Assembly (NCBI GenBank): GCA_048213135.1
Contig: PS015575.1
Coordinates: forward strand, 1-38,867
Source: Reclinomonas americana ATCC 50394
Lineage: Eukaryota
Direction of reading: 5' to 3'
Length of the DNA: 38,867 nt
Positions 2,886-31,940 of the stretch are shown one piece after another. How positions within the stretch are numbered: position 1 is the stretch's first letter; each line of letters starts with the position of its first letter. Under the pieces are notes generated by a model that saw only the letters and a list, made by a program, of their open reading frames with translations, did no database searches and had not been told where the DNA came from. Both the position numbers and the translations under genes were made by a program.

Positions 2886-5050
2886 ATGACACTCTCTGTT
2901 ACTAGTCTCCTCGCTGCTGCGGCTCTTGTCGTCTGCTTGCTTGCGTGCTCTGTCCATGCTGGCGGATCTGCACATGGTTTGTTCGCTATCGCTTCGTGTG
3001 TACTCGTCGGCATTGTTGCTCACCGCAGCCCGTCACAGGTCGACCAGACCCACATCATGACTCGAACATTCCAGTTGGAGGCGGCCGCTGCTCTGCGGAC
3101 TCTGACTGCAACTACAACAATGGAAGTTGCGCGCGCCCCACATCACGCAGTGTGCACTGACTTGTCTCGTACTGATCGCCCACACTCCCCGTGCAGCTTG
3201 TGTCCGTGGCCACTGTGCATGCGGCAACGGAATGATTGTCGGTCAGTGGTGCCAGGTGAGTGTACCCATCGTGCGCTTGGTGTAGTTCTCCTGCCTAACG
3301 AATGTCGATCGATGGATGGCAAACACAGTGCCGACCGACTCAGACCGACGGCGTGTGCAAAGAAATGCCAAAGATGTACCTCGTCCACAACGTGTGTGTC
3401 AGTGCTGAACTGTGTGTGACGGTGACGGAGAATGAGCGACGCGGATTCCTGTCTGGAGGACAGCTGGTTTCCGACTGGAATGAGGAAGCGTTGCGTGTCA
3501 CTGATGAGAGCTTCAATTGATTTTTCATATATTTTTTCTCACGAGTCGCTGCGTACAGCATGCTCTGCGTCAAATCGTCGACCATGGGCCCGCCAGACGC
3601 TGCTCGTATGCTTGGCATGTTGCACTTGGCCATGCACGACGCCGCTCAGAACGTGCCGGGTGGACAAGTTGAGTCTCGCGCACGCGTGCGCTGCTGTCGT
3701 TCTCATGCTAGAAGCACTCACTCTTCCCTCCTCAGTACAAGAAATACAAGTACTCGCTGTCGTCTCGCGTGCCTCACGACGCCTCTCGCGAAGCTGCTTG
3801 TGCAAAGGCGGCGCGCGACTTGCTGTACCACGCATTCCCCGATCGCCAGTCGTTCCTCGATGATCGCCTCACCAAGCACCTCAGCGCATTGCGCCAGTCG
3901 GGAGCCAGCAAGGTACAATCGATGTGTGATGCTGTTTCTTCTTTCCCAGAAAACTCACCCCACACAACAGTCGGCTGGAGTGTCTATCGGCGCACAGATT
4001 GCCGCCACAGTCATTGCCGATCGCACAAATGACGGTGCATCGCTCCAGCCGCTGCCGTACGTCGTGCATCCGGAGGTGGGCTTCTACAAGCTCACGCCGC
4101 CGGGATTCCTGCAGCCGGCGGCGCAGCAGTACGCTCACGTGCTGCCGTTCACCATGACGGCGACGGACATGTTCCGGTTGACGCCGGACTCGCCGTTCTA
4201 CTCGGACGAGCTGAAGAAGCAAGCACCCTTCAATCCGACTGAATTCGTCAAGAGTGCCGCGTACACCAGCGCGTGGCAGGAAGTCAGTGCTTACGGTGGC
4301 CAAAGCAGCTCCGTGCGCACCGCCGACCAGGGGAACAGTGCGCTCTTTTGGCGCGTGGATCCGACTCCCGATCATGGCGTCATCACGCCTCCGGGTTTGC
4401 ACAATGTGCAAGCGCAGCAGTTTGTGGTGGCCCACAACTGCGACCTGCAGGTACGGACAACTCTTTGCAGTTTTTTACCGCGCGAGACTTGTTTTATCTC
4501 AGACACCCCTTGCTCATGTGCGCGCGCACAGAAAGCGGCTCGTATCTTTGCCCTGTTGAATATGGGGCTGCTCGATGGGGCCGTCATGGCGTGGGACATG
4601 AAGGTTTGTAACATGCAGCTTGTCCTTTGTTCCTAAAAGTGTCTGAGCGCAGCGCCGTGTGCGTAGATCTACTTCAACTTTTGGCGCCCGGTGACTGGCA
4701 TTCAACTGGCCAACACGGACAGCAACTCGGACACCTCGCCTGACTCCTCGTGGCAGTCGTACATTGTGACACCGAACCACGAGTCGACGCCCTCCGGTCA
4801 CTCGACGTTTGCCGGCGTGGGCGCCACCGTTCTCGGCCGTTTCTTCGATGACGCGACGCCCTTCACGCAGGAGGCTGACGAATTCCCCGGCATGTGGCGT
4901 CGGTGGGGCTCACTGAACGAGGCCGCGGAGGAGGATGGCCAATCGCGCATCTTGGGCGGTGTGCACTGGCAGTTCGACAACCAGATCGGTCTGACGTCGG
5001 GCCGTCTGCTGGCCAACTACGTCTGCGACAATTACCTGACACCCAACTGA
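2886..5050 (+). CDS. Vanadium-dependent haloperoxidase-like protein, copy 1 (signal peptide + Cys-rich/EGF-like region + PAP2/VHPO domain)
   Basis: Nine exons and a hydrophobic N-terminus. Contains WNEEAM..PPDAARMLGMLHLAMHDA and the vanadate-site motifs K-IYFNFW-RP, HESTPSGH and SRILGGVH. Confidence 0.9.
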
Positions 5051-6115
5051 GCAGCATGCAGCGCCCCCTGTTTCTCTCTGTGTTTTTCCATTGAACGAAA
5101 AGTACCTTCCATGTCTTGAGGATTTGCTGTATGCGCTCGGGTCGGTCTCCTCGGCGTGTGCTCGAAAGTTCTCTGCACAGCGCATGCATGCACACACACA
5201 CACACGCGCGCGCGCGCTCCAAGAAGAGGCCGCACACACCTTTCGGATATCGCGTGTTGTACCCTCGCACCGATGTCGGCACTTTCGTGTTCGCCACATG
5301 CAGTGCGTAGCGGTACAGCGAACGTGCTTCACTCAACAGCGATGCAGGCTGCCACTCGGCTTGCCATTGCACGACGAATAGGCAGAATGTCCGTCCGTCC
5401 CTTGTCTCTTCTCACGCGCCACCATGTGCAGAGGAGAATGCACGCGACGCCGTTGCACTGCTCACACATCGCGAGGCAGATGATGGAGTCGTTGACGACG
5501 ATGCAGAGCGTAATGTGCGTTGCGCTCGTTGTTCCGATCCCTCTCCCACTCTCTTCTTGACACACACTCGTGACCACACAGAGACTTTTACCGTGTGCGT
5601 GCGACTCAGCGCATGCGTCGTCGACTGCCGTGACGTGTGTCTCTTCTTGGCTGTCTGCGGCGCGCGCCGTCATGTTGGTGATGGGTGTTGTGTGGTGGAC
5701 GCGTGACTGTGCGCATGCGCAGCGGCAGTTGCGCAGCGCTGCGTGGTGTCATCTGTCTTCTGTTGTTGTGTTGATTCGAGCCCGCACACAGTATGTGTTT
5801 TGCCGGGATTCTATGCTGTGTTTGTGCTGGTGATGTGATGGCGAAGGACGGCAAGGCTTCTCCATTCGTCGCTTGCCGCAGTGGCGAGTTTGGAGAGCAG
5901 ATCCGATGATCGCTGTCCCGCCCGCGTACGCCCAGAACTCGCACTGCCTTTGTGTGCCGAGATGCGTGGCCTCTCCCACGAAGAGCGTTCTGGAAAGGCA
6001 ACAGGCCATTACAGAAGGTTTTTCCTGTACGGTGATTTTTTCGCGCGCATTTCTTCCTCGTAACGGCTTTCAGTCCTCTTTTTTTCCTCGGTGCGAGAGA
6101 TAGTGCAAGTGTGTA

Positions 6116-7583
6116 ATGCGATTAACACAGTTGCTGGTTGCAGTGACACTGTTGTTGACGGTTTTGCTCGTCACCTTCACGTTGACGAATGCTGGTGAGT
6201 CGCCTCGTGCTGCTGTGGTGTTTTGTTGTCTGTCACGTTTTCGCGCGCGCGCGCGACTGTGGCACGTGCAATCTCGTTCTCGTGCTCACCCCTGTATAAT
6301 TCTCTTGTGCTTCTGCTGTGATCTCTCAGACGCGGATGTGGAGACGGATGGTGAGAGACACGCGCAAAGTTGATAGCTTGGTCTCGTTTTGTTCACTTCT
6401 GCGCGGGAAATCATGATCAATGATTCGCCTATGCACACGCATGCACGTGCACACAATGGTGCCTCCGCTATACTCTTCTCTGACTCTCTGGCGCATAGCA
6501 GTGACCGAGGCAGCAGAGGACTTTGGTGAGCTGGAGGATGATGATTTGTTTACTGAAGTCGACGATGGAAGGTTGCCGGTGAGACTGAACTCTACTTCTC
6601 GTCTGTTTGTTTATCAATGTGATCTCTCACGTGCGATTTCCAGCGTGGTCCGCCCGGCGATGACGGCAAGCCAGGCAGAGACAGCAAGGTTTGGAGACAC
6701 ACGCGCACATGCACACATCGTAGTGACCGTCACTCATTGATAACTGTGTCGCAGGCTGGTCCTCGTGGCTCCGCCGGTTCCCCAGGAAAGCCAGGCAAAC
6801 ATGGCAAGGTGCAGTCGCTCAACTCCGTGCACGGTGCAACTCGATTGATGCCGCTGTTGCTGACACGCACTCTCCACGCACAGCGCGGCAAATCTGGCGC
6901 GCGTGGCAAACCAGGCAAGGTGTGGTGGTGGTGGTAGTGTTGTTTACGCACGGCTGAGGTAGGTGGCATGTTGACTTGATTGCATCGTGTCGTAGAGTGG
7001 TCGCAGACCGCCTGGAAAAAACGGCAAAGATGGATCGGTTTGTGTTGCCTGGCGCTTGTCCTCCTCGGCTCGCTTGCCCCCACTCACTCATGCATCTTGC
7101 GCGTGCAGCACGGAGCTCCTGGTCCGCACGGACCATCAGGTGACGACCGGAAGGTGAGGACGGCGATCTTGTGTGTCTGCCTGCTTTCCTGATGTTGCTC
7201 GTTCTCTCACGTTGCACTTTTCTCAGCCCGGCAGGAATGGCAACGACGGCAAGGCTGGACGGGTTTGTCCTTCCTCGTGTACATGCCATGTTGATGATCG
7301 ACTACTTGTACTCACTGTGCGCACATGTAGCCGAGACCTGCCGGTCTTCGTGGCCCTTCCGGCCACCGCGGCAAGCGCGGCAAGGTGAGTGTGTCAGTAG
7401 CATGGCATGCTACGCTTTGTGGTGTTCATGCATGCTCCTCAGCGTGGACATCCCAGCTGCAGTCGCGATAGCAAGGATGGTGAAAATGGATTGTTATGTG
7501 TTGGTGTGCCTGACGACTCTTGTGCTGACCGTTGACTTTCTTTCCAGTCGGGCAAGGACGGCACAGACGACGCTCCCGGCAAG
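6116..7583 (+). CDS. Secreted collagen-like (Gly-X-Y) micro-exon gene, partly degenerate and 3'-truncated or fused to VHPO copy 2
   Basis: Signal exon 6116-6194, then acidic exons 6330-6350 and 6499-6578. GXY exons follow at 6644-6688, 6755-6808, 6884-6919, 6996-7037, 7109-7153, 7227-7262, 7331-7384, 7443-~7493 and 7548-7583 (e.g. AGPRGSAGSPGKPGKHGK). Several Gly positions are substituted. Confidence 0.8.
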
Positions 7584-7719
7584 GTACACCTTCCCCTGCC
7601 TGTTATCTGCGCATATTGCGACACAGTAGCACTCGTTCACAACAGTTGATCTAGTCGTGTAGCGCACATCCTCGCATCTGCACGTTTTTTTGTTTTCTAA
7701 CGGTCTTTACTCTGCGCAG

Positions 7720-9793
7720 ACTCACACTACTTCGATCCCAGCATCCCCAAAGGCGGTGGCGCATGCAGCACCAAGGCCAACTGTAACAACAATGGCTGTT
7801 GCGTTCATGTCGTCGTCGCGCGTCGTGTGGATGATTCTGTCTTACCGGTTGTCAAACTCTGTGCACAGCATGCGTGGCCGGCAAGTGTGTGTGCGGCAAG
7901 GGCATGATCGCTGGCCTCTGGTGCCAGGTGCCAATCTCTCTCTCGGCGATGCAAGTGACTGTGCTGGAGACTCACCGCTCCTGTATTCATGTGATGCAGT
8001 GCCGTCCGACGCAGACCGACGGCGTGTGCCGCTTGCGGGAAAAAATGTACCTCGTGCACGATGTGTGCGTGGCCGCCGATGTGTGTGTGGCCACCACGCA
8101 AGCGGAGCGCGCCAGCACGCTCACGGGCGCACAGCTGGTCTCGCAGTGGAACGATGCAGCGTTGCGCCACTTGTTGTCTTTCTTGTTTCCGCGCGCTTTT
8201 CTGTTGTTTTGACGCGGGCATGCAGCATGAAATCGATCAAGGCGAACCAGATGCCGCCGCCCGACGCGGCGCGTATGTTGGCCATTATGCACCTAGCCAT
8301 GCACGATGCCATCCAGAACGTCCCTGGCGGTCGGGTGCGTTTCTCTTCGGTCACCAACGGTCGCATTGGCGATCGTCGGTGTTTATCTTCAGTCGCTCAC
8401 CACACCCTCTCTCTCCCCAACCACGCAGTACAAGAAGTACAAGTACGTAGCCACGCAGTGCAACAAGTACGTAACCACGAAGTACAAGAAGCGCAAGCAC
8501 GTGACCGGCAGCACTCCGGCTGCCAACACATCCCGTGAGGCTGCCGCCGCTCAGGCCGCCCATGACGCTCTCTGCTTCTTCTTCGCCGCCCGCAAGCCGG
8601 TGTTGGATGCTCTGCTGGCACAGCACCTGGCGACGATCGCCGACGGCGCATCCAAGGTTTGCGACGCTCTCTTAATCTTCCCCTCCCCTCACCTCACTCG
8701 CGCCGCGCAGACGCAGGGCATCGCGCTCGGATCCACCATTGCCGCCATGATTCTGGCCGATCGTGCCACCGATGGCGTGTCGAACCCAGCGCCGCCATAC
8801 GTTGTGAATCCCGCCGTCGGCTACTACAAGCTGACGCCGCCCAGCTTTGGCCAGCCGGTGGCGCAACAGTACCCGTTTGTGCGACCGTTCGCCATGCTCA
8901 CGCAGGGCATGTTCCGCATCACACCGTCGTCTCCGTTGTACTCGGACTACATCAAGTCCACAACGCCGTTCAACCCGACCACCTTTGTCACGACAGCGGC
9001 CTACACCACCGCCTTCCAGGAGGCAAAGGACTATGGAAGTGCGAACAGCACCAAGCGCACCGCTGATCAGGCGCAGACTGCTCTCTTTTGGCGCGTCGAT
9101 CCAGTCGGCACCGCCCAAGTCATCACACCGCCGGGCCTGCACAACACTCAGACACAGCAGTTTGTGCTGGCTCACAACCGCGACCTGCAAGACGCGGCAC
9201 GCATCTTTGCGCTGCTGAACATGTCGCTGGCCGACGCGGCCATCATGTGCTGGGACATGAAGGTTTGTTGCTGCCCTCTTGCATCCCGATCGCAGGCACA
9301 GACTGCTCGCAAATGCCTTACACAATCGTGTGTCTTCGTGCAGCTGAACCTGAACTTCTGGCGCCCGGTGACTGGCATCAGCAATGCTGACATTGACAAC
9401 AACCCGTCGACCGCCAAGGACGCTTCATGGAGCTCGTACATTATCACGCCGCCGCACCAGTCCACGCCGTCGGGACACTCGAGTTTTGCTGGCGCTGGTG
9501 CCACCGTCTTGGCAGCGTTCTTCGACGAGGAGACTCCGTTGCGTCGCGATCGTGGTCGAGTATCTGAGAGAGGTTGTCGCTCACAAGTATACTACTTCCA
9601 TAGGTGGACGCAAGAGGCCGACGAGTTTGTCGGCATGTGGCGCCGCTGGGGATCGCTGTGGGAGGCAGCCGCCGAGAACGGCCAGTCGCGCATCTATGGC
9701 GGTGTGCACTGGCAGTTCGACAACCAGATCGGTCTTACGTCGGGCCGTCTGCTGGCCAACTACGTCTGCGATAATTATCTGACACCCAACTGA
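7720..9793 (+). CDS. Vanadium-dependent haloperoxidase-like protein, copy 2 (no signal-peptide exon of its own)
   Basis: Near-identical to copy 3 from about 7671 onward. Motifs K-LNLNFW-RP, HQSTPSGH and SRIYGGVH are present and the frame stays open after splicing. Confidence 0.85.
8421..8504 (+). repeat. Degenerate triplication of a splice acceptor/exon start in VHPO copy 2
   Basis: Units 8421-8450, 8451-8474 and 8475-8504 each start CCACG(C/A)AG, adding 54 nt relative to copy 3. Confidence 0.85.
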
Positions 9794-9906
9794 GCATGCA
9801 GCAGCATGCAACCTGTTTCTCTTTGTTTTTCCATTGAACGAAACAGACCTTCTTGTATCGAGGACAATCTCATTCTCATTTTGGTTTGAGTTGGAGAGAA
9901 GAAGAG

Positions 9907-12125
9907 ATGATCCACCACCGGTTTTCCGCGTGTGCATTCGTTGCCGTGCTGGCCTTTCTGCTGTTGGCCGCCTGCACTGTTGGTGCGCTTGCCCTCACTC
10001 TCTCGCGCTCTCTCTCCTTCCCACACACGCACGTGTGCGAATCCCACCTCGCATCTGCACGTTTTTTTGTAACGGTCTTTCCTCTGCTCAGACGCACGCT
10101 ACCTCGATCCCAGCATCCCCAATGGCGGTGGTGCCTGCAGCACCAACGCCGACTGCAACTATAACAACGGCTGTTGCGTTCTTGTTGTCGTCTGCGTGCA
10201 CGCTCACCATATGGATGATTCTGTCTTACCGGTTGACAAACTCTGTGCACAGCATGCGTGGCCGGCAAGTGTGTGTGCGGCAATGACATGATCGCCGGCC
10301 TCTGGTGCCAGGTGCCACTCTCTCTCGGCGATGCAAGTCACTGTGCTGGCGACTCACCGCTCCTGTATTCATGTGATGCAGTGCCGTCCGACGCAGACCG
10401 ACGGCGTGTGCCGCATGCTGCCCAAGATGTACCTCGTGCACAATGTGTGCGTGGCCGCCGACGTGTGTGTGGCCACCACGCAAGCGGAGCGCGCCAGCAC
10501 GCTCACGGGCGCACAGCTGGTCTCGCAGTGGAATGATGCAGCGTTGCGCCACTTGTTGTCTTTCTTGTTTCCGCGCGCTTTTTCTGTTGTTTTGACGCGG
10601 GCATGCAGCATGAAATCGATCAAGGCGAACCAGATGCCGCCGCCCGACGCGGCGCGTATGTTGGCCATTATGCACCTAGCCATGTACGATGCCATCCAGA
10701 ACGTCCCTGGCGGTCGGGTGCGTTTCTCTTCGGTCACCAACGGTCGCTGTCGCGATCGTCGGTGTTTATCTTCAATCGCTCACCACACCCTCTCTCTCTC
10801 CAACCACGCAGTACAAGAAGTACAAGTACGTGGCCGGCAGCACTCCGGCTGCCAACACATCCCGTGAGGCTGCCGCCGCTCAGGCCGCCCATGACGCTCT
10901 CTGCTTCTTCTTCGCCGCCCGCAAGCCGGTGTTGGATGCTCTGCTGGCACAGCACCTGGCGACAGTCGCCGATGGCGCGCCCAAGGTTTGCGACGCTCTC
11001 TTAATCTTCCCCTCCCCTCACCTCACTCGCGCCGCGCAGACGCAGGGCATCGCACTCGGATCCGCCATTGCCGCCATGATTCTGGCCGATCGTGCCACCG
11101 ATGGCGTGTCGAACTCGGCGCCGCCATACGTGGTGAATCCCGCCGTCGGCTACTACAAGCTGACGCCGCCCAGCTTTGGCCAGCCTGTGGCGCAACAGTA
11201 CCCGTCGGTGCGACCGTTCACCATGCTCACGCAGGGCATGTTCCGCATCACACCGTCGTCGCCGTTGTACTCGGACTACGTCAAGTCCACGACGCCGTTC
11301 AACCCGACCACCTTTGTCACGACTGCGGCCTACACCACTGCCTTCCAGGAGGTCAAGGACTATGGAAGCGCGAACAGCACCAAGCGCACCGCTGATCAGG
11401 CGCAGACTGCTCTCTTTTGGCGCGTCGATCCAGTCGGCACCGCCCTTGTCATCACGCCGCCGGGCCTGCACAACACTCAGACACAGCAGTTTGTGCTGGC
11501 TCACAACCGCGACTTGCAAGATGCTGCACGCATCTTTGCGCTGCTGAACATGTCGCTGGCCGACGCGGCCATCATGTGCTGGGACATGAAGGTTTGTTGC
11601 TGCTTTCTTGCATCCCGATCGTAGGCACGGCCTGCTGGCAAATGTCTCACACGATTGGGCGTCTTCGTGCAGCTGTACTTGCAGTTCTGGCGCCCGGTGA
11701 CTGGCATCAACAATGCCGACATTGACAACAACCCGTCGACCGCCAAGGACGCTTCATGGAGCTCGTACATTATCACGCCGCCGCACCAGTCCACGCCGTC
11801 GGGACACTCGACCTTTGCAGGCACCGGTGCCACCGTCTTGGCAGCGTTCTTCGACGAGGAGACTCCGTTGCGTCGCGATCGTGGTCGAGTATCTGAGAGA
11901 GGTTGTCGCTCACAAGTATACTACTTCCATAGGTGGACGCAAGAGGCCGACGAGTTTGTCGGCATGTGGCGCCGCTGGGGATCGCTGTGGGAGGCAGCCG
12001 CCGAGAACGGCCAGTCGCGCATCTATGGTGGTGTGCACTGGCAGTTCGACAACCTTATTGGTCTGTCGTCGGGTCGCTTGCTGGGCAAGTACGTTGTCAA
12101 CAACTACCTCACCCCCAATGCGTAA
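9907..12125 (+). CDS. Vanadium-dependent haloperoxidase-like protein, copy 3
   Basis: Signal peptide MIHHRFSACAFVAVLAFLLLAACTV, Cys-rich CSTNADCNYNNGSCVAGKCVCGNDMIAGLWCQC, then K-LYLQFW-RP, HQSTPSGH and SRIYGGVH. Confidence 0.9.
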
Positions 12126-12243: not shown

Positions 12244-13642
12244 ATGTGGGCGCGAGTGCGACACACTCTCACTGCTCCACAGCGCTTTGCGTCGTTCGTG
12301 GTGAACGAAAGTGCAGGTCGTTTGTGGCGACTGTTGTGGAGACCGGCGACATATCTCCGCGTCGCCCTCCACTTGTGTGTGTTGGCCGTGGTGGCGTCGG
12401 TGGTGTGCATCATCGCCCTCGCCGTGACAGTGATGATGTATCGCTCGGTGCCCGAGTCGGTGATCGACCGCGAGCTGCACTTTGACTTTCGCGAGTTGCG
12501 CGCGGGCGATCGCAGGAACTCCTTCCACACTCGCTCTCTCACACACACGAGTGCAGATCATCGCCGATCGCCTACAGCACATTCGATGGCAGTGAGCTGT
12601 GGAAGAACACGGCCTACGATGTGTACGTGGAGCTGGACATTCCACGATCGCCGGAGAATGAACGCGTTGGTGAGTGCATCATCACCTCCGACCCGGCTTC
12701 CGCTTCTTCTTCTTCACTGACTCACACCGCGTGCGCAGGCTCGATCGTCATTGTACTGTCGCTGCAGGATGAGCGAGGCGCAGTGCTGGAGCGAGCGGTG
12801 CGCACAGTCGCCCTCAAGTATCGCAACTGGTTGGTCTCCACGGTGACCACGGTGCTGTGGGCGCCCCTGACACTGCTGGGAATGACCGACGGCGACGAGT
12901 CGCACATCTCCACACTGATGGTGCGCGGATACGTGGATCGTCACGCGCTGGTCAACCGCACCACGCTGTCCACGATGATGGTGACGCTTTCGTCGTCGAG
13001 CATTCGTCTGTACGGCGCGCGACTGCGACTGGAATCGAGACTGGGGTGGCTCGGGTGCGACGTGTTGTGCACTTGTGACTGTGGGTGGTTTCTCATCGCT
13101 CTGTTTGCAGAGGACTGCTGCAACTGTCGCCTCTTGTGTTTGCCACCACGGCCGGCATCGGCACCTTCGTCGCCCTCATGTGCCCGTACATGTGTTACTT
13201 GTGCTTTGCGGCGGCCCGTGCGCTCTTGTGGCACAGCCCCGAGGTCGACAGCGACGTCGACGACAATTACAGTGGATCGCCGAGTCCGCGCAGGTCACCG
13301 CCGAGCCCACGCAGTGCCCGACTCGCCTCCGCACCGAGTCGACGCTCTCGTGTGACCATTTCGTCGACGAGTACTTCGACCACTGCCGTGGTGGCGGCCG
13401 CGGCTCGAGCGGCACAGATCGACAGCTCTGACGATGACGACCAGCAACACCACCACCACCACCAGGGTGATGTTGGGGCCGACGATGCAGACGATCTGGA
13501 CGACGACGCGTCGGCATCGGCCCTATTTCACCGAGTGACCGAAACCGAAGTCGTGCAACAGCGAACTGTCGAACGAGTGAGCTCGGTGCGGCGAAGAAAA
13601 GCAGCTGCCGTTGGTAGTGGAAGTGGCAGCAGTAAGAGATAG
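12244..13642 (+). CDS. Seipin (BSCL2 family lipid-droplet biogenesis protein)
   Basis: Four exons. An N-terminal TM segment is followed by RELHFDF, YDVYVELDIPRSPENERVG, LKYRNWLVSTVTTVLWAPLTLLG and LYGARLRLESRL, then a second TM segment and a disordered tail. Confidence 0.85.
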
Positions 13643-21109: not shown

Positions 21110-21997
21110 TCACAGGCTCAACGGCTTCACCTGCATCCCCCCACCCCATCACTCACACGTGAGCGAGCGAGCGAGCCAACAAACCAACCACCCACTGAGT
21201 CACAAACCTTTGGCAGCACAATCTTGTCCGGATCACGCAGCAGTGCCCACACCTCCACCGTGTACACACTGAACCGATCACTGCGCTTCGTGGGACTCAG
21301 CAGACACTCATTGTCGTAGGTCTCCGAGCGATGCGAGATGCCGTGACGCAGACGCGAGTCCACAAAGAAGGCCGGTCCGTCACCACTGTTCGCCCACCAC
21401 ATGATCAGTCCGTTGCCTTTTCAAAACAAGAGTCCACACCACTCACCCGCCACCCATGCCAAAGCCCTCCTCATTTGCAAACATGTAATGTTGATTTCGG
21501 CGAGAGGAGCGATATGCCCGGAACGACGGAGCGCAGCTGAACACGAAGCAGTCGCCGCGACCAAAGAACTTGGGCGTCGGCTTCCAAATGTCGGTGGCGA
21601 AGCCGCCAAAGATCTCGCCAGTGCTCGCCTGCACGACGACAACCGACGGCACATTGAACTGTTCCCTTCGCAGGCAGTACTCGAGTTCCGTCCATTGTCG
21701 GTACATGGTCTGTGTGTCGAGGACTGTGTGAGCAACAGTGACCACAATCCTTCTCTTTTCGTGCACACAGTGCACCTGTGACGAGATGCCGTGCTCCAGC
21801 GTCGAGTACACAAGGAAGGGCTGCAATCTCTGCGAGGCCATCGGTAGCATGCTGTGGATGTGTGCAAAGTCGAGCGGCGACATGACTGAGCCGGGATCGC
21901 GCTCCGTGCCCCACAGCCGGACCAGCCTGCACGGGAGGGAATGTGAGCACACACAACGTGACAGCAGATAACACACCCACACCCGCACACGCGCACG

Positions 21998-22050
<53 letters not shown>

Positions 22051-22103
22051 ACACCAACACCCACACCCGCACACTCTGGCACACACTCCACCTGCGTCCC
22101 TCC

Positions 22104-22151
<48 letters not shown>

Positions 22152-23976
22152 TTCCTGCACCCCCTCCCCCCTGACACACACCCGTTGACACTCGGCGTGT
22201 GCATCAACTCTGAACCACTTGGCGCCTCCGAGGCCACCGGTGTCGGCTCCTCAAAGCTACGACGCCGCTCGTGCCCGCCGGCATCCGCATCGGTTCGCCG
22301 TGGCGACACGGGATTGCTGCGTGATGCCACCGACGCCGATGATGCCGCACTCAACAATCCAGCCGCTCCAGCTGCCGCTGTTGCTGCTGTTGAGATGAAC
22401 AGAAAGCAATGAGTACAAAGCGTGCGTGTCGTCACACGCAAGGAGAGAGGAAGAACACACCGGCTACAGTTGTCGGTCCACTACCGCGCGGCTTGTGAAC
22501 CGTCCTCGCATGCAATTCCATCAGGTCCGGTCTGACCAGCACCACCACCGTCTGCGCGCACACAGAAGCATGCGTGAGCGGTGACTGTGCGGAGCTCACA
22601 TCCTCGCGCATTTACGAAACCGCATTATCAGGCAAGTAGTCGTCGTCGTCCAGATCAGCAAGGAACGGATTCAGTTCCCGGAAATCGTCCGACTTCATGC
22701 GATACATGCTGGTAATGACTCGAATCGACTCCTCCGGTGCCACCACGTGCTCCACATACATGGCTGCGCCACACACGTGGGTCTCCTACAGTAACAGACA
22801 GAAGAAGAGATGACAGTGATGACAACGTACGAGTTGGAGCCTCCTCCGGCGGCAACATGGCAGCCGCGGCGGCCACCGCGCGACGCGGCGACGACTGCAG
22901 GGTGGCAGATGGTGCATCGGCTGCACCACCCATCGACAGAGCAGGTACCGATGGCATGGAACCACTTGCCCCTGCCTCGGCGGCCGAGTCACCACCGTCG
23001 CCACCGCTGCTACGTTGGAGGGGGCAGGTCAGCACGAGAACGAAATGGAAAACCACGGCGAGAATCGGCGACGGCGGCACGCAACAGACGCGCCGAGCGC
23101 TGGAATCGCTTTCGCTTAGGCTCCGCGGCTGGAGTGGCACTTGGCGCGCTGCTCCCACACGCACAAGAGTGAGACAAGGGATGCGAATCTAACGAGCGAG
23201 CAGACGCAACGCTACATCCTTCTCCGGCGGTGCAAACACGCGCAGCACCTGGCGATTTCACACATCAGCATGTGACCAATACAAGACGGGCACCACTTCC
23301 AGATACGCGCGCACACACGCACGCACGCAACTTCACCCTCGTAGATCACACCACCACGGTGCACTTTGCTCGGATTCAAGCGCTTCAGCTGCGCCACCGA
23401 CATGTCATACAGCACCGCCACTCCCTCCAGTGTATCATACGGCGACACAATGTGGTCCACTACGGGACGCGACGGTGCTGCCGCGACAGCAGCCGCCGCC
23501 GACGATTCGTCACGAACAGGTGAAGATCCTGTTGTCGCACTGCCCTCACCAGCAGCAACAGAAGGAGGAGCAGCAGGCGGAGGCGAAGAAGGAGCATCAC
23601 CACCACCGGCACCACCAGAAGCCTCGCCTTCCTCCTCCTCCAGCAGCTCCACAGCGCCCACGTCTTGCAACTCCTCCACACTTCGCATCATCATCATCAT
23701 CATCACACAATCAGTCAATCAATGCACACACACACACACATACGCAAGATCACGCACCCCAGTGCCTCGCCCGGCACAGCACCAGCCACTGGCTTTGGCG
23801 GCGCCACTCCAAGCACCTCAATCACCCCTTGCAGAATGTTACCAAACCAGGCCCCGACTCCATGACCACGCTGCACCTCCTCCAGGCTGTCACCCTATAT
23901 ACACACACACACACAACCGCAGTCAAGACACGCACAGACACAGAGAAAGACACAGACACACACAGTCACTTACCAT
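21110..23976 (-). CDS. OXR1/NCOA7-like LysM + TLDc domain protein
   Basis: LysM reads [28 protein letters not shown]. TLDc contains [36 protein letters not shown] and [15 protein letters not shown]. The first exon is only the ATG (23974-23976), followed by GTAAGT. Confidence 0.85.
21975..22150. repeat. (CA)n and (CT)n microsatellites in an intron of the TLDc gene
   Basis: Long ACAC run at about 21998-22048 and TCTC run at about 22105-22148. Confidence 0.95.
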
Positions 23977-24065
23977 GCGCGTGTCAGTGTCGGTGTGTGT
24001 GTTGTAAGAAGAGGACACCCGCCCTCGAGTTGTCCTTCTCCTTTGTTTGTTTGCTGTCACTTCCG
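23977..24065. promoter_or_regulatory. Candidate bidirectional promoter (TLDc gene / GMPPA)
   Basis: Only 89 nt separate the divergent start codons. Inferred from gene geometry alone. Confidence 0.5.
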
Positions 24066-27000
24066 ATGAGCGTCCGTGGTGTTGTGATGATTGGCGGGCC
24101 GTCCAAGGGCACCCGCTTCCGCCCACTCTCACTCGACGTGCCAAAGCCGCTGTTCCCAGTCGCCGGATTGCCCATGATTGAGGTCTGTGTGTGCGCGTGT
24201 GCGTGTGTGTGGGTGCAAGCGATGTCTCTCCTCCGCGCAACCACACACACCACTCTCTGTCTGTGTGTGCGTGTGTGTGCGCGAGGTGTACCTCCGACAT
24301 GCCTCTCTTGTGTCTGTGCGCGCTTGTGTGTGTGTGTGTGTGTGGAGGGAGAGATGGTGCTGATGACGCTCTCTCTCACTCTCTTCTTCCTCTGCCATGC
24401 AGCATCACATCCGTGCACTGACCAAACTGGGAGCGGAACTGGCGGAGATTGTGTTGATCGGCTTTTATGAGGAGAGCGCCATGGAGTCCTTCATCTACGC
24501 CATGTATGATCGCTATCGTACGCGCATTCGGTGTGTGACTCCTCCTCTTCCGCCTCCTTCTCTCTCTCGCTCTCTCTGTCTGCCTGACATCCAGACGCAC
24601 AGCTACTTGAAGGAAAGTGGCGAAGTCGGCAGCGCCGGTGCGCTGTATTCCTTCCGCGAGGAGCTGCTGGCGGACGACGTTAAGCAGCTGCTGGTGTTGC
24701 ATGGCGACATTTGCTGCACGTTCCCCGTGTGTGAGCTCGTGGAGTGTCATCAGTCCAACCCGAAGGGTGCCATTGGTACGCTGGCCACCACAAGAGTCGC
24801 CAGTGACGAGCGCAGATATGGATGTGTGGTCACGCGACCGGGATCGCGCGAGGTGGTGCACTACGCCGAGAAGCCCGAGTCGTTTGTCAGTGATGTGATC
24901 AACACGGGCATGTACTGCTTCGTGGCGGCGGCGTTTGTTGAATACCTCACCGCAGTTGCGTGGGGTACACTTCGGGCTCCTCGTGGACTATCCCCTGTGT
25001 CTCACCCTTGTCTCTCGCTCTTGCCTCTCGCCCTTGTCTCTCGCTCTTGTCTCCCGCCCTTGTCCTTCTCCCCTCGTTTCTCTCTGTTTGTCTCTCCCCC
25101 TCGTCTCTCCCCCTCGTCTCTCTCGTCGCTCACCCCTTGTCTCTCGCTCTTGTCTCTCGCTCGTCTCTCGCTCTTGTCTCTCGCTCGTCTCTCGCTCTTG
25201 TCTCTCGCTCTTGTCTCTCCCCTTCGTCTCTCCCCTTCGTCACTCCCCCTCGTCACTCCCCCTCGTCACTCCCCTCGTCACTCCCCCNNNNNNNNNNNNN
25301 NNNNNNNNNNNNNNNNNNNNNNNNNNNNNNNNNNNNNNNNNNNNNNNNNNNNNNNNNNNNNNNNNNNNNNNNNNNNNNNNNNNNNNNNNNNNNNNNNNNN
25401 NNNNNNNNNNNNNNNNNNNNNNNNNNNNNNNNNNNNNNNNNNNNNNNNNNNNNNNNNNNNNNNNNNNNNNNNNNNNNNNNNNNNNNNNNNNNNNNNNNNN
25501 NNNNNNNNNNNNNNNNNNNNNNNNNNNNNNNNNNNNNNNNNNNNNNNNNNNNNNNNNNNNNNNNNNNNNNNNNNNNNNNNNNNNNNNNNNNNNNNNNNNN
25601 NNNNNNNNNNNNNNNNNNNNNNNNNNNNNNNNNNNNNNNNNNNNNNNNNNNNNNNNNNNNNNNNNNNNNNNNNNNNNNNNNNNNNNNNNNNNNNNNNNNN
25701 NNNNNNNNNNNNNNNNNNNNNNNNNNNNNNNNNNNNNNNNNNNNNNNNNNNNNNNNNNNNNNNNNNNNNNNNNNNNNNNNNNNNNNNNNNNNNNNNNNNN
25801 NNNNNNNNNNNNNNNNNNNNNNNNNNNNNNNNNNNNNNNNNNNNNNNNNNNNNNNNNNNNNNNNNNNNNNNNNNNNNNNNNNNNNNNNNNNNNNNNNNNN
25901 NNNNNNNNNNNNNNNNNNNNNNNNNNNNNNNNNNNNNNNNNNNNNNNNNNNNNNNNNNNNNNNNNNNNNNNNNNNNNNNNNNNNNNNNNNNNNNNNNNNN
26001 NNNNNNNNNNNNNNNNNNNNNNNNNNNNNNNNGTCTCTCCCCCTCCGTCTCTCCCCTCTCGTCTCTCCCCCCTCGTCTCTCCCCCCTCGTCTCTCCCCCC
26101 TCGTCTCTCCCCCCTCGTCTCTCCCCCCTCGTCTCTCCCCCTCGTCTCTCCCCCTTGTCTCTCTCTCTCTCTCATGTCCCTCACCTTCGCCCTTGCCTCT
26201 CCGCAGGTGCGCGCCATGAAGAGCCGACCATCGGCCACCGACTTGGCCGCCATTCTGGAGCTGCCGTCGAGCAACGTCATTCGCCTGGAGCAGGAGATCC
26301 TGGTGCCGTTGGCCGATCAGGGCAAGTTGTACACGTACGAGTTGCCTGGCTTCTGGTCGCAGATCAAGTCGCCGGCGTTGCGTCTCGGAAGCGCTCCCGT
26401 TTATGACTGATAATTCCTTCCCTCACCACCGCCGCCGTCACAACCGCAGTGCTGCTGTGCGGTGCTCGGCATTGTACTTGGAGCAGTACGCATTGCTCGG
26501 CTCACCCATGTTGTATTCCAAGCCGGCCGGTGCCGAGGGTCCAATCATCGTCGGCAATGTCACGATTGACGAGAACGCCGACGTGCATCCCACGGCCAAG
26601 GTGCGTGTGTTGGTGAGCGTTGAGAGTGGAAAGGGGACTCATTGGCGTCACAGATCGGACCCAATGTGTCCATTTGCGCGGGCGCCACTGTCGGCAAGGG
26701 TGTTCGAGTGGCAAACTCGATTATTCTGGAGGGTGTGCATCTGAAGGTTTCTTTAAATTTCTCTTGTCGCCACCTCCAGCATAGCCCTTCTCACCCCTGT
26801 GTACATTGGCAGGACCATTCATGTGTGTTGAACAGTATTCTGGGCTGGAACTCAACAGTAGGTCGGTGGGCGCGAGTGGAGGGCACGTTCGACCCGTCGG
26901 CGGCCAATGAGCAGATGACAATCTTTGGTGCGTGTCACGCCTTCACCATTTCACTCGCCCACGCCTCACCGGGACATGTCACACAGGTGCTGGAGTGGAG

Positions 27001-30542: not shown

Positions 30543-31799
30543 ACACTCTCTCTCTCTCTCACGAGTAACTCACCGATCTGTGTTCGTGCGTCGCCAGAGG
30601 GGCTGTCACTACCGCTGGTGCAAGACTTTGCGATCTCACTGGCCATGATTCTCCAGCACAACCACGCCCTCTGTGCTGTCTACCTGAAATGTGCAGGTTT
30701 GCTGATGGAGTTGTCTCTGCCTCCTGTCTCTCCCGTTTGCTCACACCTGCCACAGAAATGCTGCTCACCAGCTCGATTGCCGAGTGCCTCTTTTCGGCCT
30801 TGTCGCACAATCGGTCGCTGCGCGAGTTGTCAATCAGTGGACCACTGGTCGTGCAAGACACGAATTTCGGCGATGCCTACAACAGCACCGGCACTGGGAG
30901 ACGAATGGCCGAGCTGAACTGGGTCAATGCACTGAGCAAGCTGTTCCGCTACAATCGCACACTGCACCGGCTCGGCATCGGCGGCTCCTTCTGGCAGCAC
31001 GCTCTGCCAGACTGTGCCACGGCACTGGCGCACCACAATCGCACCCTACACTCGCTGTCGTTGGCCCGTGGCGATTTCTTCGCCACCGGCAACGAATTCC
31101 TGCTGGCCTCGTGCATCGAGCGGCTGCTCGCCGGCAACCTGGTGGAGTTGGATCTGTCGCACAACCGCCCATTCGAGGAGAGCGTCATTAGTGCGCTGTG
31201 CACGGCACTGCCGGGCAACAGCACACTGCGGGAGTTGAATCTGTCGTCGTGCGGTCTGGGATCGTCGGCGCTGGCACGTCTCGGCGAGGCCATTGCGGCG
31301 CTGCCGCCGACGTCGTCGTTGTGTCGCGTGAATATTGCGCACAACGCGGCGCCGAGTCGTCCCTTTGAGCTGGCGTGCGAGGCGGCTCTCGACCTGACAT
31401 TCGAGCGGCTGGAGCTGGAGCGTGCACTCGGCGTGTGGAATGGTACGACAACTTGTTGCACGAACTCAAGTGCTCCACTGTGTTTGCTCACCCACCCGCG
31501 CAGCCTCGGCCGACGAAATGGACGAGCACGTACAGCGCCTGTGGACGGGCCGAGTGGTCGGTGGTGGCGGCGGCGGCACGGCGGCGGGCGGTGCAGGAGG
31601 CAGTGGCACGGGCCACGACGATCACAACACGGGCATTCGACTGGATCACGTGGACATGCTGCGACGGCGGTACCTGGAGGCGCGCAGCGCAGCACAAACA
31701 TGGCGCACCATCTTTCCCAGTGTCATCGACGTGGTGCAGAGGCAGACGGTACGATTGCGGAGAGCGGCCGGCAACGCTCCCATTGCCGCGCCATCATGA
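30543..31799 (+). CDS. RNI-like leucine-rich repeat protein, 3' part
   Basis: Repeats HNRSLRELSI, YNRTLHRLGI, HNRTLHSLSL, LVELDLSHN and NSTLRELNLSSCGLG. The 5' end lies in the gap. Confidence 0.75.
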
Positions 31800-31940
31800 C
31801 ACACCTGCAGTGAACCGCACAGCAACACATACTGCGAAGTGCGTGGGGAAAGCGAAAGCACACAGCCGTTCGTTCACTTGCAACGCCGTGCACTTCCTTC
31901 TGATGTACATCCATTTTCTTCTCCGTCAATCCCAGTCGCG

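Follow-up and report, generated by a model that had tools for sequence, protein, structure and literature searches.

A Candidate Fusion of a Collagen-like Gene with a Vanadium Haloperoxidase Paralog in Reclinomonas americana

Introduction

Can a vanadium haloperoxidase-like (VHPO) gene that has no start codon of its own be expressed through the 5′ part of the collagen-like gene lying directly ahead of it, such that the two are read as one secreted protein? This question is raised by positions 6116–9793 of a 38,867-nucleotide stretch of DNA from Reclinomonas americana ATCC 50394 (GenBank assembly GCA_048213135.1, contig PS015575.1, positions 1–38,867 of the forward strand), the whole of which is referred to here as the window. 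Three VHPO-like genes stand in tandem in the window, copy 1 at 2886–5050, copy 2 at 7720–9793, and copy 3 at 9907–12125, all on the forward (+) strand. Copies 1 and 3 are complete, each with nine exons (539 and 532 residues, respectively) and its own signal-peptide exon (9907–9982 in copy 3), and were used as comparators for copy 2. A first-pass annotation, made without database searches, had proposed that copy 2 and the collagen-like gene form a new gene created by exon shuffling. The analysis described here leads us to a collagen-containing VHPO fusion protein as the candidate product of the locus, a reading that is quite possible although short of probable.

Results

Copy 2 Begins Within an Intron

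Copy 2 is composed of eight downstream exons, with GT-AG junctions throughout, which together give an open frame of 523 residues with a phase 1 entry. In copies 1 and 3 a signal-peptide exon ending in phase 1 is followed by a six-cysteine EGF-like module spread over two exons, four more cysteines, and the enzyme domain. The first retained exon of copy 2 (7720–7797, phase 1-1) contains the start of the cysteine-rich EGF-like module and is followed by 7869–7927, with the remainder of the six-cysteine module, and 8000–8160, with the four additional cysteines and the start of the enzyme domain. Exons 8226–8334 and 8429–8656 lead to the main exon (8711–9262), at the end of which the first active-site lysine is located, and the gene closes with 9344–9537, carrying the FWRP and PSGH motifs, and 9604–9793, carrying the SR-x5-H motif and the stop codon. 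The VHPO exon models were derived from the sequence and cross-checked among the copies and against bacterial relatives. Exon 8429–8656 holds an in-frame 54-nucleotide (nt) tandem insertion found in copy 2 alone, an expansion of a 24-nt Tyr/Lys-rich repeat (2.2 copies, 8439–8491) that adds an unpaired cysteine.

The absence of a signal-peptide exon from copy 2, reported in the first-pass annotation, was borne out by the comparison of the three copies: there is no ATG within 7497–7719, and nothing in 5123–7669 was found to be similar to the first exons of copies 1 and 3. Self-comparison of the window aligned 7670–8452 with 10047–10835 (92.7% identity) and 8473–9765 with 10802–12094 (94.8%), and copies 2 and 3 become similar within intron 1, some 50 nt ahead of the acceptor at 7719/7720, again as annotated. 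The 136-nt intron that precedes copy 2 (7584–7719) is a hybrid. Its last part, 7670–7719, aligns with the 3′ portion of intron 1 in copy 3, branch-like TCTAAC and acceptor included. The other 86 nt (7584–7669) have no match in the VHPO copies and show no homology to the 5′ portion of that copy 3 intron, an equally high score being reached by 379 of 500 shuffles. A breakpoint, if the two parts were joined by rearrangement, would lie within 7584–7670.

The nearest upstream signal-peptide exon on the same strand is 6116–6194, the first exon of the collagen-like gene, which shares its phase 1 end with the first exons of copies 1 and 3. Homology of this exon, or of its 5′ flank, to the corresponding sequences in copies 1 and 3 was considered and set aside as not significant, with 3 to 168 of 200 shuffles reaching the best local scores.

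The Upstream Gene Is Collagen-like

The gene ahead of copy 2 is encoded on the + strand and comprises a signal-peptide exon, two short exons, seven Gly-X-Y mini-exons (6644–7384), and two odd last exons, ending 136 nt upstream of 7720 as the first-pass annotation had described. Exon 1 (6116–6194) starts with the ATG at 6116, encodes a 26-residue hydrophobic signal peptide, and ends in phase 1 at the donor GTGAGT; exon 2 (6330–6350) has 21 nt and runs from phase 1 to 1; and exon 3 (6499–6578) encodes an acidic segment and runs from phase 1 to 0. The seven Gly-X-Y mini-exons are all in phase 0 and 36–54 nt long, at 6644–6688 (45 nt, phase 0-0), 6755–6808 (54 nt), 6884–6919 (36 nt), 6996–7037 (42 nt, with a register break inside), 7109–7153 (45 nt), 7227–7262 (36 nt), and 7331–7384 (54 nt). 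Exon 11 (7443–7479) is a degenerate collagen exon, and exon 12 (7548–7583, 36 nt) is collagen-like in frame 0. All 10 introns ahead of exon 11 are intact and GT-AG.

The collagen-like part contains 30 Gly-X-Y triplets in 104 residues (31 Gly, 16 Pro), arranged in blocks of 4, 11, 7, 4, and 4 with four interruptions, and thereby has the glycine at every third residue that marks collagen triple-helix repeat proteins. The Pfam Collagen model (PF01391) gave a weak match, noted at the 6755–6808 mini-exon, of 24.7 bits against a cut-off of 27.2 with a query that was an unspliced frame covering three exons only. A scan of all six frames for runs of at least four Gly-X-Y triplets found seven in 6644–7387 (+) and four elsewhere in the window, and identified no further collagen exons downstream anywhere in the window. 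No trimerization or nucleation domain was recognized in the exons of the collagen-like gene.

The first-pass annotation had also found no convincing terminal exon for this gene, a claim that holds in part. Candidate terminal exons do exist by read-through, with stops at 7533–7535, 7647–7649, or 7652–7654. Their tails score as intron-like or slightly better in codon usage (−0.22 and −0.72 per codon, with intron controls at −0.8 to −1.0), and as true terminal exons they were judged less likely because this codon usage looks non-coding.

A T-run followed by the motif CTCGGTG is present at 6079–6093 (+) and at 2845–2863, ending in each case 22 nt before an ATG, that of the collagen-like gene and that of VHPO copy 1, respectively. 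These are the only two sites in the window when both strands are scanned, with a pattern that was set after both had been seen. The motif may be a promoter or leader element common to the two genes, or may reflect a common origin. Alternatively, copy 2 may originally have begun with 6116–6194, the collagen exons having entered its first intron.

Possible Splice Routes Joining the Two Parts

The collagen exons are in phase 0-0, and the junction with copy 2, whose acceptor at 7720 expects phase 1, would therefore have been born out of phase. At the position where exon 11 should have its phase-0 donor the sequence reads GA (7476–7477), and the next GT is at 7480 (GTGAAA). Splicing at this GT ends exon 11 in phase 1, and the 36 nt of exon 12, which has an open donor, GTACAC, at 7584, preserve that phase. 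Both donors had been pointed out in the first-pass annotation.

Splice sites were scored with a position matrix built from 26 local introns (8 from copy 1, 8 from copy 3, and 10 from the collagen-like gene), with the candidate sites kept outside the training set. The donor at 7480 scored 6.2, the best of 22 GT sites in 7440–7719 and to be compared with a leave-one-out median of about 5.6, and the acceptor at 7720 scored 9.0, near the top of the training range. The acceptor at 7548 (4.7) and the donor at 7584 (4.0) were both within that range. The segment between exons 11 and 12 (7480–7547) resembles the neighboring introns in its length of 68 nt, its branch-like motif, and its pyrimidine tract.

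The route through exon 12, in which that exon is read in a shifted frame (7479^7548 and 7583^7720), gives 20 exons, all GT-AG, with a stop-free frame of 711 codons, and the route omitting it (7479^7720) gives 19 exons, likewise all GT-AG and stop-free, with 699 codons. All four of the in-frame routes to 7720 named in the first-pass annotation, these two and the direct splices from 6194 and 6350, proved to be stop-free. Joining 7583 to 7720 in the plain collagen frame leads to a stop after about 40 codons. Skipping of exon 11 (7384 to 7548) was tried and rejected, as the Gly-X-Y register is kept and the frame is then incompatible with 7720. Metagenomes scanned with 30 nt spanning the donor of exon 12 returned 0 matches, and a scan with the main VHPO exon returned 198 pattern matches, with 0 relatives among them.

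Copy 2 Has Evolved Under Purifying Selection

Synonymous divergence (dS) between copies 2 and 3 is 0.140 and non-synonymous divergence (dN) 0.034, giving a dN/dS of 0.24. Compared with copy 1, which is distant, copies 2 and 3 have ratios of 0.25 and 0.24. Differences were found at 46 of 361 synonymous sites compared with 38 of 1151 non-synonymous sites, approximately a fourfold difference in rate (p = 4e-10). When copy 1 was used as the outgroup, itself saturated at silent sites, 14 non-synonymous and 18 synonymous changes were placed on the copy 2 branch and 15 and 17 on the copy 3 branch, with 11 and 9 unassignable. Neutrality of the copy 2 branch was rejected with all sites (p = 8e-5), after removal of the copy 1-like 3′ end (p = 0.001), and also when every ambiguous replacement was charged to copy 2 (p = 0.037). 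The coding length differences between copies 2 and 3 are 54, 3, and 3 nt, each a multiple of three. Taken together, these data indicate that copy 2 is not decaying and has evolved under the same purifying selection as copy 3. A gene kept under such constraint needs a start codon from elsewhere and, given its disulfide-rich module, a signal peptide from elsewhere as well.

The 3′ end of copy 2 differs from the remainder of the gene in its nearest match. Positions 9608–9864, taking in the last exon together with some 70 nt of its 3′ flank, are 85% identical overall to 4865–5122 of copy 1, with the last 20 residues identical. Copy 2 is thus, by alignment, a gene-conversion mosaic, copy 1-like at its 3′ end and copy 3-like elsewhere, among copies that appear to exchange sequence.

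The Enzyme Part Is of the VHPO Type

The database proteins closest to the enzyme part are bacterial, with up to 38–39% identity among the matches listed; nearly all of these listed relatives carry PF22778 and PF01569, and some are named vanadium-dependent haloperoxidase by NCBI. With a query that was the unspliced frame, including three intron read-throughs, Pfam returned PAP2 only (E = 2e-10) and NCBIfam returned nothing. The best matches by sequence among solved structures were Curvularia chloroperoxidase (E = 3e-10) and Zobellia iodoperoxidase. The equivalents of Lys353, Arg360, Ser402-Gly403-His404, Arg490, and His496 of Curvularia chloroperoxidase are all retained, positions that we take, from the residue roles in 1VNC, to hold the vanadate. 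The corresponding K-x6-RP, PSGH, and SR-x5-H motifs are found in all three VHPO copies, in columns that are invariant in 22 aligned sequences.

A fold model computed with 21 relatives had a predicted template modeling score (pTM) of 0.76 and a mean predicted local distance difference test score (pLDDT) of 70.7. Its three main low-confidence stretches coincide with the three read-through introns, and this gives independent support for those intron calls. In a structure search with the model there were 17 matches at E ≤ 0.001, the ranks shown being Zobellia, Curvularia, NapH3, NapH1, and XhnO11; small acid phosphatases matched at E ≥ 0.09 only. The same motifs occur in PAP2 acid phosphatases, and phosphatase activity would be the alternative to haloperoxidase activity for an enzyme carrying them. 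By sequence, motifs, and predicted fold, the label of a VHPO-type enzyme is sound.

Ahead of the enzyme domain, all three copies have a candidate EGF-like module with the pattern C-x6-C-x5-C-x4-C-x-C-x8-C, encoded over two exons. The nearest relatives of the VHPO-like genes are bacterial, yet the complete copies have 8 spliceosomal introns each as well as this added cysteine-rich N-terminal module, which is absent from the 9 bacterial sequences compared. The combination looks like an old bacterial transfer that was followed by intron gain and domain accretion.

Other Features of the Window

The window has a GC content of about 58% and 8 N runs, none of which lies between 5 and 12 kb. Its genes are interrupted by short GT-AG introns, and the VHPO-like genes are found alongside pieces of Seipin, TLDc, nucleotidyl-transferase, and leucine-rich-repeat genes; with the N runs, these intron-broken genes identify the window as a draft scaffold of an intron-rich eukaryote. 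The open frames with those matches (12486–13352, 21446–22480 on the opposite strand, 23193–24467, and 30569–31810) are ordinary eukaryotic genes, none of the four being collagen-like. The Seipin exon matched generic eukaryotic Seipin clusters only, below 0.9, and a TLDc search returned no hit. Degenerate tandem repeats, with copies 75–92% identical, extend over 24977–26201 on either side of the N run at 25288–26032. No Rfam family reached threshold in a search of the whole window.

An unusual donor, GTTGCG, recurs in the VHPO-like genes at 3126 and 3490 (2 in copy 1), 7798, 8161, and 9538 (3 in copy 2), and 10173, 10543, and 11867 (3 in copy 3), in homologous and non-homologous introns. It was accepted in the exon models, and the spacing from the conserved Trp-Asn to the Pro-Pro-Pro motif then equals that of a bacterial relative. 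The intron at 4451–4531 of copy 1 is absent from copies 2 and 3, and the intron at 9538–9603 of copy 2 (11867–11932 in copy 3) is absent from copy 1. The stop codon of copy 2 and the start codon of copy 3 are separated by 113 nt (9794–9906), a space so small that the copy 2 3′ end and the copy 3 promoter and 5′ leader must overlap or be very short.

Discussion

The arrangement described above is what intron-to-intron exon shuffling would be expected to leave. In the mechanism that we propose, a rearrangement within introns would have placed a VHPO paralog, by then without promoter, first exon, and the 5′ portion of intron 1, behind the 5′ portion of a secreted collagen-like gene. Transcription would begin before 6116 and continue through both parts, and short-intron splicing would connect exons 1–11 and then use the GT at 7480, 4 nt beyond the old phase-0 donor that is now GA. 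Exon 11 would thus end in phase 1, as the VHPO acceptor expects, with exon 12 either included or left out. The predicted product would have, in order, a signal peptide, the acidic segment, about 30 Gly-X-Y triplets, a short linker, the cysteine-rich EGF-like module, and the VHPO-type enzyme. The Gly-X-Y part may form a triple-helical stalk, and the enzyme may oxidize halides outside the cell. The constraint on copy 2 and the phase-setting donor at 7480 favor such a working chimera. Of the claim of a new gene made by exon shuffling, then, the architecture, the constraint on copy 2, and a donor giving the needed phase all stood up; the codon usage of exon 12, which fits the collagen frame, did not follow it, and the fusion itself stays at the level of a candidate.

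Several observations weigh against a settled fusion. The chance of a phase match together with 12 stop-free GC-rich codons is about 0.28 (1/3 × 0.85), and the phase fit and the open frame, taken alone, are weak evidence. Exon 12 scores +14.4 for codon usage in the collagen frame and −7.5 in the fusion frame; it is therefore unadapted to the latter, and either the exon is translated in some other way or the re-phasing, if real, is a young event. In exon 11 the codon-usage score falls to 0.02 per codon, compared with 0.25–0.74 for the other Gly-X-Y exons, and across the collagen exons the GC content at third codon positions is 0.57, compared with 0.76 in the VHPO genes, with a synonymous codon choice off the VHPO pattern. 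Copies 2 and 3 are as similar in exons (94.4% of 1517 nt) as in introns (94.6% of 501 nt), their divergence is patchy along the length in the pattern that gene conversion would leave, and non-synonymous divergence is only marginally under intron divergence (p = 0.053). The constraint on copy 2 may also predate the junction. Finally, although no N run is found near 7584–7720, the scaffold is a draft.

A rival reading is a dead or artefactual junction, produced by a recent deletion or an assembly error, with no productive fusion and with copy 2 silenced too recently to have decayed. The collagen message would then end by read-through at one of the three stops given above or run out of frame after 7583^7720, and the degenerate exon 11 with GA at its phase-0 donor, the stop met within about 40 codons in the collagen frame, the exclusively collagen-frame codon signature of exon 12, the weak codon bias of the collagen exons, the lack of downstream collagen exons in the window, and the draft state of the scaffold all agree with it. 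We nevertheless regard it as fairly unlikely, given that the copy 2 and copy 3 branches show equally strong selection, that the eight exons of copy 2 and the 10 introns ahead of exon 11 are all intact with GT-AG boundaries, that the strongest local donor happens to be the one restoring the frame, that no N run lies near the junction, and that the read-through tails score like introns. Capture of a promoter and signal peptide only, the collagen exons being skipped or used in a separate alternative message from the same promoter, is improbable. Exon 1 (6194) or exons 1 and 2 (6350) would be spliced to 7720, both in frame, to give a secreted EGF-VHPO of 549 or 556 residues, and exon 1 shares with copy 3 exon 1 both its phase 1 end and its final G, making the junction codon the same Asp. 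The intron so formed would have 1525 nt, whereas the 26 local introns have 54–148 nt, and ten or eleven exons with good splice sites would need to be skipped. The T-run and CTCGGTG motif, found 22 nt before both ATGs and nowhere else in the window, hints that copy 2 may originally have begun with 6116–6194, but it was defined after both copies had been seen, and no sequence similarity was detectable between exon 1 and the first exons of copies 1 and 3.

It is very improbable that copy 2 is independent of the collagen-like gene by virtue of a cryptic first exon of its own in the 3′ end of that gene. Such an exon would start at the ATG at 7477 or 7486, encode a hydrophobic peptide of 20–23 residues, reach phase 1 at 7546, and be spliced to 7720, and it was one of 81 ATG-to-phase-1-donor candidates in 5051–7719. 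Its hydrophobicity (2.89, compared with 3.02 for the true signal peptide) and its position 174 nt before 7720 are suitable, but T-rich introns often translate to hydrophobic peptides, and this one overlaps the well formed 68-nt intron with its branch-like motif and pyrimidine tract. With a score of −1.1, its donor, GTCGGG, ranks no higher than the weakest donors used for training and has a C at +3 that is seen in no local donor, and the T-run and CTCGGTG motif is missing upstream. Whatever probability is not taken up by the fusion and these three alternatives we leave to readings not thought of.

The enzyme part of the candidate fusion is like known VHPOs (Zobellia iodoperoxidase, 4CIT and 4USZ; Curvularia chloroperoxidase, 1VNC; NapH1, 3W36) in sequence, predicted fold, and vanadate-site positions. 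It differs from its bacterial relatives by the introns and the EGF-like module, and copy 2 may also carry a collagen-like stalk; no Collagen domain was found among the 120 near-length and 10 longer VHPO relatives listed, which is weak evidence. As a candidate for gene fusion by intronic recombination, the locus has breakpoints in two introns, a hybrid intron, a phase 1 signal-peptide exon, and a set of exons between 6194 and 7720 that is phase 1-1 overall. It departs from that scheme in that the collagen exons are phase 0-0 and compatibility would depend on an unusual, putative shift of the exon 11 donor by 4 nt.

Collagen-stalked globular proteins are familiar from C1q, the collectins, and the ficolins, and in ColQ, the collagen tail of acetylcholinesterase, an enzyme head is anchored to the matrix. 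The candidate fusion shares with these a layout in which a signal peptide and a short N-terminal segment precede a stalk of a few dozen Gly-X-Y triplets, broken by interruptions, and then a globular head. Their stalks trimerize, nucleated by a neck or head domain, whereas no such domain was identified in the fusion candidate, and its longest uninterrupted Gly-X-Y block is 11 triplets. In ColQ, moreover, enzyme and collagen are separate chains, unlike the single chain predicted here.

A parallel in chemistry is offered by peroxidasin, which is described (PMC5377774) as secreted and homotrimeric, as matured by proteolytic cleavage, and as releasing hypobromous acid (HOBr) that crosslinks collagen IV. 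In the fusion route the shifted exon 12 would give an Arg-rich linker resembling a convertase site; such a linker is also what a GC-rich exon yields in the wrong frame. Peroxidasin is, in addition, a heme peroxidase unrelated to VHPO, has no collagen domain of its own, and acts on a separate collagen. Brown-algal VHPOs have been linked to oxidative crosslinking of wall phenolics (PMC8307928). The fullest form of our reading would be a secreted vanadium haloperoxidase on a trimeric collagen-like stalk, in which a VHPO paralog of bacterial ancestry had come to lie in a collagen-gene intron, had been re-phased by the 4-nt donor shift, and supplied hypohalous acid to the extracellular matrix of the organism itself. 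This would parallel the pairing of peroxidasin with collagen IV, but with a non-heme enzyme and by independent evolution. In all its parts together this is unlikely, and HOBr chemistry, matrix tethering, or crosslinking at the locus would be speculation by analogy. In the literature searched, no publication joins vanadium, haloperoxidase, and collagen-like, and no such fusion was among the matches listed for vanadium, haloperoxidase, and collagen.

Should the fusion not be expressed, the locus is no more than the scar that a rearrangement ordinarily leaves among tandem genes. If it is expressed, it would be a case of exon shuffling caught in the act, with the repair of a phase mismatch still visible, and would encode the first collagen-stalked haloperoxidase. 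An enzyme family of algal walls and bacterial natural-product chemistry would then be tied to a collagen-type scaffold, and multiple origins of halide-based oxidative chemistry at collagenous matrices would become testable.

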